From Nitrospirota bacterium (lineage in GTDB: Bacteria > Nitrospirota > UBA9217), in the NCBI GenBank assembly GCA_963751455.1, contig CAVVUN010000012.1:96001-160000 (forward strand): 64,000 nt of DNA. Reading direction: 5' to 3'. This document shows, one piece after another, positions 2,897-6,966 of the stretch (position 1 is its first letter; every line of letters begins with the position of its first letter). The notes beneath the pieces are model-generated. The model was not told where the DNA came from. It saw only the letters and a list, made by a program, of their open reading frames with translations, and did not search any database. A program made the position numbers and the translations under genes.

Positions 2897-2924
2897 TTTC
2901 CCGTCAACCAATACCCGAGAATAA

Positions 2925-2983
2925 TTCCAACCTGCGCCTCGACAGCTACGCGCCAAAGGCGGCGCGTCAGGCGCGCATTGGCT
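2925..2983 (+). other. attC-like site 2 (3' core degenerate, ATTGGCT)
   Basis: TTCCAACCTGCGCCTCGAC...ACGCGCC-AAAGGC-GGCGCGTCAGGCGCGC; closely related to the site at 6906. Confidence 0.65.
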
Positions 2984-3051
2984 CCGGGGAAAATGCTCTA
3001 CGTCGGCCGGAGCCGCTGAGTCAAGTCGTTTACCAAAAGGAGGATGTGAGC

Positions 3052-3180
3052 ATGAGATACAGTGTACTCTGTGTAATAATTTCTGTGATTGTTGGAATTG
3101 GCCTAGCTGGATGCAGCGGTGCATCGAATAATTCAAATAATAACAGCGATTCTGCCTCTTCACCATGTTTGACGGTCTGA
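3052..3180 (+). pseudogene. Short or truncated lipoprotein cassette ORF (42 aa)
   Basis: RBS AGGAGG; MRYSVLCVIISVIVGIGLAGCSG carries an LAGC lipobox; preceded by a GTTTACC core-like site. Confidence 0.5.
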
Positions 3181-3237
3181 GGCAGTGCCTTGCTAAATTA
3201 TACTGCTTCTGAAGCCTTGATTTTTTTTTAAAAAGCC

Positions 3238-3268
3238 TTGACCTGTCTATTACTTCATAGTTTATGAT
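3238..3268 (+). promoter_or_regulatory. MerR-type promoter with 19-bp spacer
   Basis: TTGACC (3238-3243), 19 nt containing the CTAT-N6-ATAG dyad, TATGAT (3263-3268). Confidence 0.75.
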
Positions 3269-3290
3269 ACACTCCAGCTCAGGAGGTATC

Positions 3291-3842
3291 ATGTACACCA
3301 TCGGTCAACTGGCAAAGAAAATCGGTCTCTCCCGCAGCACCCTGCTCTACTACGATTCGATAGGCCTCTTTTCTCCCTCTGGAAGGAGTAATTCCAATTA
3401 TCGTACATACACCGAAGAGGACCGCGACCGTCTTGAGCAGATCTGCACCTACCGCCGGGCCAGCCTGTCCCTGAACGATATAGGCCGGATCATAAAAACA
3501 AGAAACAAACGGAGCGTTGTTCCGCTTCTCGAAAAGCGGCTTGATGCACTGAACAGGGAAATCCGCGCTCTGCGCAACCAGCAACATTTCATTGTAAAGC
3601 TTTTGAAGAACGATCTCGCGCTTTCAAAGATCAGGGTCATGGACAGGGAGAGCTGGATCAAGCTGCTGGATAGGGCCGGTCTGGACGAGGCGGCCAGGGA
3701 CAAGTGGCATGCAGAATTCGAGATGCTTGCTCCCGACGCGCATCAGGATTTTCTCGAATCCCTCGGCATTCCAGGCAAGGAAATCACACTTATCAGGAGG
3801 TATTCAAGGCACGGACGAAAGACCGAGTCAGCCGGGCGCTAA
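3291..3842 (+). CDS. MerR-family transcriptional regulator (not Hg-sensing type)
   Basis: MYTIGQLAKKIGLSRSTLLYYDSIGL...RSNSNYRTY HTH, coiled coil, C-terminal WHAEFE...AHQDFLESLGI domain; RBS AGGAGG; only one Cys. Confidence 0.92.
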   Translation: MYTIGQLAKKIGLSRSTLLYYDSIGLFSPSGRSNSNYRTYTEEDRDRLEQICTYRRASLSLNDIGRIIKTRNKRSVVPLLEKRLDALNREIRALRNQQHFIVKLLKNDLALSKIRVMDRESWIKLLDRAGLDEAARDKWHAEFEMLAPDAHQDFLESLGIPGKEITLIRRYSRHGRKTESAGR

Positions 3843-3885
3843 TGTGCGGCAAAGACTTTTGAATGACGTTTTTAACAGAAGGAGG

Positions 3886-4650
3886 ATGAAGGTGAAAGAC
3901 AGGATCATGCTGGGATTATGGAAGTACATGCTGAATGTCCCTTCTTTTATGATGGACATGAAGAAGCAGATTGCCCGTGAAAAAATGAGATATGAAGCAG
4001 CTGTGGGTTTTATGACCGAGGACCACCGTCGTGTGCATCATTTCGTTGTCAGGGAACTTCCCGATGCCGGCAAACCCTTGTCCCCTGAATTAATAGCGGA
4101 CAAACTGGGCCTGCCCTATAATCGGGTCGCGTTCGTTCTTAATGATCTCGAAAAGCATATGACCTTTCTGTTCAGGAATAAGAATGGAGCAGTAACGTGG
4201 GCATACCCGGTAACGGTCGACAAAACGCCCCATCACCTCACATTCAGTTCCGGCCAACAGGTGCACGCGGCCTGAGCAGTGGACGCATTTGCCACGCCCT
4301 TCGTGCAAGGGCGATTACGGAACGAGCATATTACAGTCACGGTCCGCACTGAGTGCGCCCACTGTAAAACGCCGATGGAGCTGACTATCGACAGTGATCT
4401 CAATTGCACTATCAAGGAAAATGGGTGCGAGCCGATGGTCTTTATGCCGAATGTGGACCTCTTGAACCTTCAAGACGAGAGCATCATCAACGCATTCTGA
4501 AAAGAGACGGTCTTCTTCCGGTCGGAAGAACACGCACGAGAGCACCGAAAAAGGACACACCGGATACGAGGGGTTTATTTGACTGCGGAACAGATGAAGG
4601 AGGGCACGAAGATAATCCAGAGCGTGCTTTTTGGATTTCCTGATACATGA
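3886..4650 (+). CDS. MerB-like organometallic lyase, predicted selenoprotein with two Sec (UGA at 4273 and 4498), about 254 aa
   Basis: Reading through both TGAs gives AYPVTVDKTPHHLTF...VHAA-U-AVD...TECAHC...SIINAF-U-KETVFFRSEEHA, collinear with MerB YAWCALD and SFCCHVHFFAS; SECIS-like hairpin after each TGA. Confidence 0.85.
4295..4313 (+). promoter_or_regulatory. SECIS-like hairpin 1
   Basis: CGCCCTT-CGTGC-AAGGGCG; loop starts 26 nt after the TGA, with G at loop position 2. Confidence 0.65.
4513..4530 (+). promoter_or_regulatory. SECIS-like hairpin 2
   Basis: TTCTTCC-GGTC-GGAAGAA; loop starts 19 nt after the TGA; GGUC as in the E. coli fdhF SECIS loop. Confidence 0.75.
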
Positions 4651-4770
4651 TGTTTATCAACTTGAAAAAAGCAATGTGGATAGTCACCTGAACTTGAGGC
4701 CGGTGAAAATAGAATTCAATACAGTTGCCGATCCGGAATATGCAGTGTTTTCAGAATGGCTAAGGCCGTT

Positions 4771-6105
4771 TAAGTGGACCCCTCTGTCAAGACAATAAAG
4801 GGGTGAGATTAAGATGGTAACCAACCAAGCCGCAGCTGCATGGCGCTGCCCCGGTTTCTACCTCTCCCTGAGGTTCTTTTCGCTCTTTGAATTTATCCAC
4901 AATCCTTGCTCCACCGCCGTTCGCTGTTTGATAGATCACATCCGGTGTGCTGTAGTCCAATGATTGATGTGTTCTTTCCGTGTTGTAGAACATAAAGTAT
5001 TTCGTCAGCCCCAGTTGCGCTTCAGGTACTGTGGCGTACCCTTTTAAATATACGTCTTCGTGCTTTACGCTCCGCCATAGCCGTTCCACGAAGATATTGT
5101 CCAATGCACGGCCGCGGCCGTCCATGCTGATGTTAATGCAGTGCGCCTTGAGCACGCCGGTGAAGGCCTCAGAGGTGAACTGGCAGCCCTGATCGGTGTT
5201 GAAGATCTCGGGGATGCCGTATGTCTGTAATGCCTGTTCCAGGCAGTCCACGCAGAAGCTGCTATCGAGCGTGTTTGATAATCGCCATGCCAGCACTTTG
5301 CGTGAGTACCAGTCGATCACGGCCACCAGGTACACAAATCCCCGCGCCAGGCGGATGTAGGTGATGTCAGTGCTCCATACCTGATTGGGTCGTGTCACCG
5401 ATACGCCTCTGAGCAGATATGGATAAACCATGTGCTGCGGGCTGGGGCGGCTGGTGTTCGGTCCCGGTGCCATGCCTGCCAGCCCCAGAATGCCCATTAG
5501 CCGCTGTATCCGTTTTCGGTTGACCTGATGCCCTATGCCGCACAAGTACACGGTTATTTTGCGGCTGCCGTAGAACGGATGCCGGGTGTATTCAGCGTCG
5601 ATCTCACTCAGCAGGGTCAATTCCAGCTCGTCCGGGTCGGCAGTCAGATGCGGCGCATAGAAAGTGGACCGGTTGACACCTGCCAGTTCGCATTGTTTGG
5701 TTAGCGCCAAAGGGTTTTTGGTATCTACCCAGTGCCGCCGGTCCGCTATAGGCTGATCCCGGACTTTTTTTTAAGCCAGTCCAGTTCCATCTTCAGCCGT
5801 CCGATCTCGGAGTAGAGCCGCTCCGAACTGGCAGCAGGATCTACCGGCGCGGGACCGCGCGTAGTGTCAAATATGCCCGCAGCCTGATCTTGCAAAACCT
5901 TTTTCCACTGCCCCACTTGCGTTGGATGTACGCCGAACGCCTGGGCAATTTCGGTTACTGTCTTGACACCTCGGATCGCCTCAAGCGCGACCTTGGCTTT
6001 GAACTGACTGCTGAAATTTTTGCGCTTTTTTTCGCTCAAAACCTGCTCCTTTTTAACGGCAGGTTACCATCTTAAACTATTGTCCGAAAATTGGGGTCCA
6101 CTATA
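4771..6105 (-). mobile_element. IS3-family insertion sequence (about 1335 bp)
   Basis: Imperfect inverted repeats AGTGGACCCC-N8-GACAATA at both ends, GTT direct repeat outside, orfA/orfB arrangement. Confidence 0.93.
4787..6039 (-). CDS. IS3 transposase OrfAB: orfA 5746-6039 plus DDE orfB 4787-about 5770 via -1 frameshift
   Basis: OrfA HTH FKAKVALEA; OrfB WSTDITY, FNTDQG, DNIFVERLWRSVK; A8G slippery run at about 5764-5772 on the minus strand. Confidence 0.92.
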
Positions 6106-6365
6106 GTTTTAAAGTCAATTTTTAGAGCAAAGAACTATAAAACCAAAGTCATCTTCGACATACAAAAGTGGTTTGAAACAGATGATAGAAGTAGAGTGTG
6201 AAAATCATTTTATCAACGTTGAGAGAACAAGGGATCACTCATCAAGTAGTCGATCTCAAGAATTACTGATGTGAAACCGAAACGTCGAAGTAAATCGAAG
6301 TAAGTCCTTGATTAAAAGGGCATCTCGTTGTAAAATCATTATAAACGTTGATGGAGGTGTTCCTA

Positions 6366-6596
6366 ATGCCAATGAAAGTAAAAGAAATCGAAGAAGAGGC
6401 ACTTCGGCTTAGTTCGCATGAGCGAGCCCTGCTTGTCGAACATCTTATCGGAAGTTTGGAGCCCGATGAAGATCCTGACGCTGAGCGTGCTTGGATTAAG
6501 GAAGCCGAGCGCCGCTACCAGGACTACAAGGCAGGAAAAATGAAAACGAGACCATCTGAACAGGTTTTCAAAGAGGCCCGCGCAAAATTGAAATGA
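6366..6596 (+). CDS. Addiction-module antitoxin
   Basis: ALRLSSHERALLVEHLIGSL...AWIKEAERRYQDY; ATGA overlap with the toxin. Confidence 0.85.
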   Translation: MPMKVKEIEEEALRLSSHERALLVEHLIGSLEPDEDPDAERAWIKEAERRYQDYKAGKMKTRPSEQVFKEARAKLK

Positions 6597-6895
6597 TGCC
6601 GATTGACTTCCTTCCCGAGGCAGAGCAGGAAATGATCGAGGCTGCGCTTTACTATCAGTCTCTATCATCAGGCCTAGGAGATGACTATCTCGACGAGGTC
6701 GAACGCGCTGTTCGCTCCATAACATCCTCCCCGCAAACATGGCCAATTCTTGAAGGCAATTTGAGAAGACGGCTTATCAAAAGATTCCCCTTCGCTGTTT
6801 TATACAGGATTGAGCAGGATAAAATTCTGATGGTCGCTGTTGCCCATCTGAGAAAAAAGCCAGGATACTGGAAAAATAGAATCCGTACAAAGTAA
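6593..6895 (+). CDS. RelE/ParE-family toxin
   Basis: FLPEAEQE...RRRLIKRFPFAVLY...VAVAHLRKKPGYW. Confidence 0.9.
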   Translation: MMPIDFLPEAEQEMIEAALYYQSLSSGLGDDYLDEVERAVRSITSSPQTWPILEGNLRRRLIKRFPFAVLYRIEQDKILMVAVAHLRKKPGYWKNRIRTK

Positions 6896-6905
6896 ATACC
6901 CGAGA

Positions 6906-6966
6906 TTCCAACCTGCGCCTCCACAGCGACGCGCCATAAGGCGGCGCGTGACCCGCATCGTTATCG
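6906..6966 (+). other. attC-like site 3
   Basis: TTCCAAC ... ACGCGCC-ATAAGGC-GGCGCGT ... GTTATCG. Confidence 0.7.

Follow-up and report, generated by a model that had tools for sequence, protein, structure and literature searches.

A very likely di-selenocysteine family of MerB-fold proteins with in-frame TGA codons at both catalytic positions

The 64,000-nucleotide stretch of DNA analysed here (the window) carries, at 3892..4650 of the plus strand, a gene for a MerB-fold protein of 252 amino acids with two in-frame TGA codons. Two open reading frames (3709-4275 and 4279-4500) and a tail (4501-4650) have a common frame and are separated only by the TGA codons at 4273-4275 and 4498-4500, just as an earlier note on this DNA had described, and translation through both gives the peptides it had predicted, VHAA-U-AVDAF and SIINAF-U-KETVFFRSEEHA. 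In a MerB alignment the first TGA (predicted Sec130) falls at the position of Cys96 and the second (predicted Sec205) at that of Cys159, with Asp133 (4282..4284) as the equivalent of the proton-relay residue Asp99. With TGA read as selenocysteine (Sec), the frame continues to a third TGA at 4648-4650; this is the real stop codon of the gene, since the relatives end close to this place with stops that vary between TAA, TAG and TGA. The earlier note had begun the protein at the ATG at 3886, but the GTG at 3892 is the more likely start on sequence grounds, both because the Shine-Dalgarno sequence AGGAGG (3880..3885, plus strand; 6 nt ahead of the GTG) abuts the ATG, leaving no spacing, and because the start residue of the GTG is the first residue in 118 of the 120 short database relatives listed; the length of 252 amino acids follows from this start. 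Residues are nonetheless numbered throughout from ATG 3886. A contig (not raw reads) of the public run X1, which may be the source sample itself, covers 3200-4760 at 99% identity with 13 substitutions and no gaps, and its substitution types exclude TGC or TGT at both sites. No RNA data set was listed with the gene, which tells neither for nor against its expression.

A gene for a MerR-family regulator (3291..3842, plus strand; Pfam MerR_1) ends 49 nt upstream. Its only cysteine lies in the DNA-binding part, its C-terminal domain has no metal-binding cysteines, and it scores 42.8 against a cut-off of 150.85 with the mercury MerR model TIGR02051; because of that single cysteine and that low score, its sequence argues that it is not a classical mercury-sensing MerR. 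An Atlas search on its ligand returned unnamed clusters only, all under 0.9. No plus-strand terminator was found between the regulator and the di-TGA gene, and the two are likely co-transcribed. Upstream, at 3238..3268 of the plus strand, lies a MerR-type promoter (TTGACC and TATGAT around a 19-bp spacer with a CTAT-n6-ATAG dyad). A long spacer is typical of MerR-activated promoters; our sigma-70 scan missed this one because it allows spacers of 16-18 bp only.

The regulator-gene pair sits in a variable accessory region. It is flanked within the window by an integrase C-terminal remnant, a HigBA pair, an IS3-family element that has terminal inverted repeats and an addiction pair of the ParE type (275-508, 2197-2896, 4773-6102 and 6348-6895). 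A plasmid search gave three weak matches only. A GC-rich, REP-like intergenic repeat of about 55 bp lies at 2924-2955 and 6905-6936 and has a dozen or more copies in the genome. We considered an integron cassette and rejected it, the repeat at 2924-2955 being genome-wide and no attC array being seen. A short ORF at 3052-3180, with a lipoprotein-like signal and an end soon past its cysteine, is probably a gene remnant.

The comparison at the DNA level covers 88 loci, namely the studied locus, seven from genomes (L011 was excluded because it duplicates L008) and, out of 528 confirmed metagenome matches, the best 80. Since these are the nearest relatives, the counts describe the core of the family. 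All 88 carry TGA at both codons, rather than Cys, and Asp at position 133; TGG, TGC and TGT occur in none, and only two other stops were seen, both at the C-terminal edge. The earlier note had argued that two random nonsense mutations were unlikely to hit exactly the two catalytic residues, and this conservation bears it out. Among 78 pairs of 75-95% nucleotide identity, dN/dS was 0.18 before, 0.18 between and 0.12 after the TGAs, values by which all three segments are under purifying selection; conservation thus continues past both codons rather than ending at the first, which the earlier note had said would count against its reading. The gene is therefore, by these comparative measures, an intact member of a large family and not a local oddity or a broken gene.

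The databases contain this family as truncated or Trp-misread “hypothetical” proteins. A protein search of 1.84 billion representatives gave 514 matches, of which 150 were listed; among those listed, 97 end at residue 129, 13 end at residue 204 and 13 span both sites, the remainder being 25 of other forms and two long unrelated proteins. Cys stands at site 1 in 8 of the 13 listed proteins that end at 204, which suggests that C/U forms exist within the family. Among short proteins, a search found 1,041 relatives with E values of 1e-10 or lower, and 119 of the top 120 stop at residue 129; clustered at 90%, the short database entries of the di-TGA family number more than 1,000. All named records (Nitrospirae, Desulfomonile, Deltaproteobacteria, Anaerolineae) are annotated as hypothetical protein. 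Carriers make up 7 of the 401 genomes sampled in the phylum of the studied genome, all of one family, and 2 of 10 genomes in a second, small phylum. Several full-length relatives are without the catalytic residues (P0007, P0009, P0012, P0021, P0050, P0052 and P0061; the five tested form one clade), and three variants (P0002, P0010 and P0017) have Ser at site 1; these are possible non-catalytic derivatives, as their sequences would allow. Our trees were built by a quick method without bootstrap and leave out the SaoL and E. coli MerB sequences.

Behind each TGA, on the plus strand, lies a hairpin of the SECIS type. Hairpin 1 (4296..4312; 26 nt past the UGA) has a 6-bp core stem and the loop CGUGC, and hairpin 2 (4513..4530; 19 nt past the UGA) has a 7-bp stem and the loop GGUC. 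Both agree with the bacterial SECIS model, which asks for a G within the first two nucleotides of the loop and a distance of 16-37 nt from the UGA (PMC13188914), with folding energies of -9.8 kcal/mol for hairpin 1 and -7.5 to -8.2 kcal/mol for hairpin 2. Because they are no more stable than shuffled sequences (z from -0.96 to +0.30), the case for the hairpins rests on conservation and covariation, which we assessed in 78 non-redundant genes (< 95% identity). When synonymous codons are resampled, the full stem 1 would be expected in 2.6 genes and is found in 72 of 78; stem 2 is found in 75 of 78 against 20.0 expected and, with Watson-Crick pairs only, in 66 of 78 against 0.6. These counts come from related sequences that are not independent, and they are not to be read as probabilities. 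The codons for Pro138, Phe139, Val140, Gly142, Phe210 and Phe211 show zero synonymous variation in the 78 genes, against a background modal-codon share of 0.54. In stem 2, all 9 genes with the replacement Trp212Arg, the studied one among them, also carry a synonymous TCA-to-TCG change by which the base pair is regained, and the quick tree requires at least three changes; a second pair of the stem changes from T-A to C-G in one clade of four. An Rfam scan of 2900-4900 found no relevant family.

The genome has the machinery that such recoding calls for, as the earlier note had proposed to confirm: selA and selB are present, there are two tRNA-Sec (selC) calls, and selD, which has a TGA of its own, is present though frameshifted in the assembly. 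This frameshift is probably an assembly indel, because fusA, rplA and dsrA are equally broken (fusA and rplA on contig C15, dsrA and selD on C2), and broken genes in this assembly should be read with care. Among the eight other carriers, selD passes its cut-off in all and is full-length in seven; selB is found in six of the seven carriers of the family, the exception being a genome that is 83% complete. Elsewhere in the genome TGA serves as a normal stop codon. A second, divergent tRNA with a UCA anticodon (C13:3947-4041, minus strand), on a 9-kb contig with pieces of a frameshifted oxidoreductase, is either a contaminant or a non-canonical selC-like tRNA. A FAD-dependent oxidoreductase gene with an in-frame TGA (C15:1643856-1645286, minus strand) probably encodes another selenoprotein. 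Taken on the comparative evidence, both in-frame TGAs of the MerB-like gene are very likely decoded as Sec.

The read-through protein is recognized by the Pfam MerB model PF03243 at 61.6 bits (cut-off 27) over residues 111-238, a span that includes both TGAs. A phmmer search of the PDB matched E. coli MerB and aligned U130, D133, C157 and U205 with Cys96, Asp99, Cys117 and Cys159, in agreement with the catalytic mapping that the earlier note had proposed. The AlphaFold2 model has a pLDDT of 93.6 (from a 52-row alignment, mostly fragments); with this model Foldseek gave 11 matches at E < 0.001, all to MerB or MerB2, and a wide structural search placed MerB2 first (Z 22.8, rmsd 2.5 A over 206 residues), then MerB (Z 20.2), with an unrelated structure next at 5.2. 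Since the alignment puts U130, D133 and U205 on the catalytic residues of MerB, we infer that the three converge in the fold. The protein misses the NCBIfam MerB equivalog cut-offs (NF009710, 56.2 against 193; NF033555, 46.9 against 200), and it passes no model in the NCBIfam release of June 2026. The Asp99 and Cys117 that mark MerB are kept (D133 in 88/88 loci, C157 in 78/78 genes), and in place of the canonical Cys96 and Cys159 there is a TGA at both codons; Sec at these sites would be an analogue of the MerB cysteines and not the canonical residue. The di-Sec MerB-like protein proposed by the earlier note has thus held in its fold, its catalytic mapping and its TGA conservation.

C157 belongs to a motif C157-A-H159-C160 (4354..4365, plus strand), in which C157 lies on MerB Cys117 and is kept in 78, H159 in 76 and C160 in 77 of the 78 genes; H216 is kept in 76 of 78, and in one homolog positions 212 and 216 are both Cys. 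C157, C160 and H216 likely hold a structural zinc in a putative remnant zinc knuckle. Set against what we take to be the treble-clef motif consensus, C157-x-H-C160 and FF-[W/R/C]-SEE-H216 look like the second knuckle. MerB is said to derive from such a treble-clef knuckle (PMC4999995).

The carriers have links to mercury. The studied genome has hgcA and hgcB (C15:162185-163480), and hgcA scores above its cut-off in 52 of the family's 64 genomes and in 9 of 10 of the second phylum; because of these 52 genomes, the bacterial family appears to consist largely of putative mercury methylators. No enrichment of hgcA together with the di-TGA gene can be demonstrated, because hgcA is nearly universal in both lineages; two of the seven family carriers are without an hgcA match, and these are 83% and 86% complete. 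Two genomes of the small phylum have hgcAB-linked loci on one strand (L138:7100-11500 and L137:4750-13200). In G406, hgcA, hgcB, a hemerythrin gene, a gene for a small Cys-rich protein and the di-TGA gene follow one another on one strand, the last 2.7 kb downstream of hgcA; the order is repeated in G401 apart from two inserted genes, and there the di-TGA gene lies 6.5 kb downstream of hgcA on the same strand. This linkage is of one lineage and could reflect co-location in an accessory region. The genes are unlinked in G069 (1.2 Mb apart) and in the studied genome, G024 and G050 (different contigs). No MerA above the cut-off was found in the studied genome, whose best MerA-like match is without the C-terminal Cys pair, or in the eight other carriers (at most 21 candidates scored per genome in the relatives); on the same scoring of at most 21 candidates per genome, MerA passes in 1 of the 64 family genomes, which carries a Cys/Cys MerB.

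The neighbourhoods of the gene are varied. Across the 88 loci, a MarR gene occurs in 13, a MerR-like regulator adjoins the gene in 10 and a thioesterase gene occurs in 10; GNAT acetyltransferases, RidA-like proteins, FMN reductases and others are scattered. The MerR-type promoter is found in 6 of the 10 regulator-linked loci, all six from genomes of the studied bacterial family or from a named Nitrospirae record. There is no conserved operon among the relatives, whose 404 neighbour ORFs fall into 310 clusters. Among 131 neighbour ORFs scanned (31 representatives of shared clusters and the nearest 100 of 198 singletons) we found no mer families, no arsenic, tin or lead resistance genes, and one cation-efflux gene, and tblastn with HgcA, HgcB, MerA, ArsM-like and MerT queries gave no match in the 88 loci (399 kb; 29 loci of at least 6 kb).

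We favour a selenium-based organomercury lyase that works without MerA, a reading to which, by analogy with MerB, we give a probability of about 0.5. In the model for MerB, R-Hg is bound by Cys96, Cys159 and Asp99, which also protonate the leaving carbon; a selone that mimics MerB can cleave methylmercury (PMC10114901). From known bacterial Sec insertion, SelB would bind the hairpin behind each UGA in turn and deliver Sec-tRNA, thereby placing Sec130, Asp133 and Sec205 at the catalytic positions of MerB. Sec130 would then capture R-Hg+, a further Se-Hg bond, made by Sec205, would loosen the Hg-C bond, and Asp133 would hand a proton to the leaving carbon, releasing R-H; the proton would have to come from water, because a selenolate carries none. 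With its selenolates the enzyme may rival thiols and sulfide for the traces of methylmercury in anoxic sediment and, without MerA, might pass Hg(II) to sulfide or thiols or else turn over slowly, with partly the role of a sink. In the studied lineage, the MerR-family activator likely controls the gene, sensing some ligand. Hg-Se bonds are very strong, and selenium holds mercury harder. Because of these strong bonds, and because MerB normally hands Hg to MerA (PMC8261052), product release is the weak point of the lyase reading; removal of Hg from MerB needs incoming thiols (PMC4525700) or MerA (PMC8261052). Also speaking against a lyase are the identity of about 20% to MerB, the missed NCBIfam cut-offs, Ala in place of Trp95, the absence of mer neighbours in the loci scanned and a regulator that does not appear to be a mercury sensor.

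That the gene encodes no selenoprotein at all, being a pseudogene, a split gene or an assembly error or reading TGA as Trp, is very improbable. The assembly does have indel errors, in the four split genes named above, and among 91 longer database proteins examined (of 93 listed, two being already covered), 26 have Trp at site 1; 54 stop at residue 129, 8 carry Cys and stop at 204, 3 are of other forms and none has U. However, every Trp-form protein comes from a contig of at most 2.4 kb, one (P0171) matches locus L040, whose DNA reads TGA at that site, and three more sit in 90% clusters with truncated calls; for these reasons we reject Trp as most likely a misreading by gene callers under a TGA=Trp code, shown directly for one protein only. 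The Trp forms are thus most likely not the homologs with Trp, Arg or other residues at the TGA sites that the earlier note had named as a threat to its reading. The presence of both TGAs and the absence of TGG in all 88 loci, the selection past both TGAs, the covarying hairpins and the ordinary use of TGA as a stop elsewhere in the genome all tell against a gene that is not recoded.

If the protein is di-Sec, it could still be a redox enzyme in general detoxification under MarR/MerR control, in which Sec130 would attack a small molecule that is oxidised or electrophilic, Asp133 would serve as the acid, Sec205 would close a diselenide and a cellular reductant would recycle it. Such a cycle would sidestep the problem of Hg release, redox roles are assumed for the majority of selenoproteins (PMC13188914), and the neighbours (MarR, MerR-like, thioesterase, GNAT, RidA-like and FMN reductase genes) are not metal genes; but the only solved structures that we found with the same fold and triad are organomercurial lyases, and no thioredoxin or reductase partner recurs among the neighbour clusters, so that we think this unlikely. 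The same Se/Asp/Se protonolysis might instead act on organotin, -lead, -arsenic or -antimony compounds, a somewhat less probable reading: MerB sites accept other metals, the substrate pocket differs by the Ala for Trp95, carriers without MerA are what would be expected if Hg(II) were not the product, and the authors who described SaoL doubt that Hg is the sole substrate of Sec MerB-like proteins (bioRxiv 2022.07.06.499078), against which stands the lack of arsenic, tin and lead resistance genes, with a lone cation-efflux gene, among the neighbours scanned. A non-catalytic or single-use, high-affinity sink or sensor for Hg or methylmercury (or Cu/Ag), whose selenolates would retain the metal, is an improbable reading as well. 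The carriers searched have no MerA above the cut-off that would take up a product, and the Ser variants and the clade without catalytic residues imply that the scaffold can persist without full catalysis, yet the Asp133 proton relay is kept in every locus and two costly Sec residues per bound ion would make a poor sink.

Whatever its substrate, the protein represents a large selenoprotein family in which each of the two catalytic positions of a single active site has a Sec codon with its own signal. It calls for annotation fixes, and it offers a natural Cys/Sec series (U/U, C/U and Ser variants) for enzyme chemistry. The lyase reading, if extended to a widespread, MerA-independent, selenium-based methylmercury demethylase that merB surveys overlook and that occurs in the same anaerobic lineages which produce methylmercury, becomes a tentative proposal that we hold to be doubtful as it stands. 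The studied genome does combine hgcAB, the di-Sec MerB-like gene and no MerA above the cut-off; one merB survey reports no MerB-only genome with hgcAB (PMC8261052), and the genes behind anoxic demethylation are an open question (PMC10114901). Surveys of merB require Cys96 and Cys159 (PMC8261052, PMC9948709) and would therefore miss the di-TGA family. If the protein does cleave Hg-C bonds, the count of potential methylmercury degraders changes, an overlooked breakdown of organomercury would take place in oxygen-free, mercury-methylating bacteria, and the gene would be a candidate for the unexplained demethylation in anoxic sediments.

The earlier note had suspected that the family was undescribed, and our searches are in keeping with this. 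SaoL, with one Sec, is the sole MerB-like entry in the accessible parts of a 2026 inventory of 119 selenoprotein families (PMC13188914), and a 2022 review of selenoproteins, in the part available, includes the same protein; the main text of deep-Sep does not mention MerB. In the portions of the literature covered, which take in the families of Haft and Tolstoy 2025 by way of the table in the 2026 review, we found no description of a di-Sec MerB, and the family is missing from the 119-family inventory and from NCBIfam of June 2026. By its sequence features, then, it belongs to neither canonical MerB nor SaoL and is a large uncatalogued family that is very likely di-selenocysteine.

Like MerB (plasmid R831b, PDB 3F0O/3F2G) and MerB2 (PDB 5C17), the protein has the same fold (Z 20.2-22.8) and passes PF03243. 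It differs from MerB, to which it is about 20% identical, in its TGAs at both catalytic Cys codons, the lack of Cys160, the Ala for Trp95, an added CxHC and a gene outside any mer operon. The extended N-terminus claimed by the earlier note stands, at about 25-30 extra residues that are predicted to form a beta-hairpin and a helix; its extra CAHC is extra only relative to E. coli MerB, and a CxxC (CPEC) is present as well in Cys/Cys MerB homologs from this bacterial family. The lack of MerA is shared with about half of the genomes that carry canonical merB (PMC8261052).

Like SaoL (NF040728; Haft and Gwadz, preprint 10.1101/2022.07.06.499078), it is a MerB homolog of anaerobes with Sec at the Cys159 position, truncated in databases and putative in function, as far as the SaoL source describes. 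In SaoL a single Sec sits in a CU dipeptide, the Cys96 position keeps its Cys, the length is about 213 amino acids and the gene marks a nine-gene SAO locus, whereas the di-TGA protein has two Sec, FU or YU and not CU at site 2, and no conserved operon. Scored against the SaoL model, it reaches 38.9 (cut-off 140) and is thus not SaoL; no SAO cluster surrounds the gene or its relatives, as the earlier note had said of this one, and a genome-wide search for SaoC, run without a positive control that responded, was blank.

A second, very distant clade of di-TGA MerB-like genes (L007, L122, L123, L125, L130 and L131) has the pattern WFAQ-U-GFE ... U-SRIHLFRSEE, with Glu replacing the catalytic Asp and a second hairpin that shares its core sequence with hairpin 2; its copy in the studied genome (L007; C6:115546-115836, minus strand) is frameshifted past the second site, possibly by an assembly error. 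The Cys/Cys MerB-like proteins of the same bacterial family (L017-L026 and L029) share with the di-TGA protein the fold family, the CxxC knuckle and the use of in-frame TGA, and are 22-29% identical to it across a long, fully supported branch of the quick tree. They differ in a Cys/Asp/Cys lyase site, in having their TGA in a fused domain and in lying, in some cases, beside MerA or a metal-type MerR. In all 11 the in-frame TGA (GFS-U-RMF) joins the lyase to an upstream thioredoxin-like domain that resembles the DF selenoprotein family (45.5 bits, under the cut-off of 70), and two of the genes adjoin MerA-type genes. Because of this TGA-joined domain in MerBs that include two beside MerA-type genes, Sec appears compatible with mer loci in this family of bacteria.
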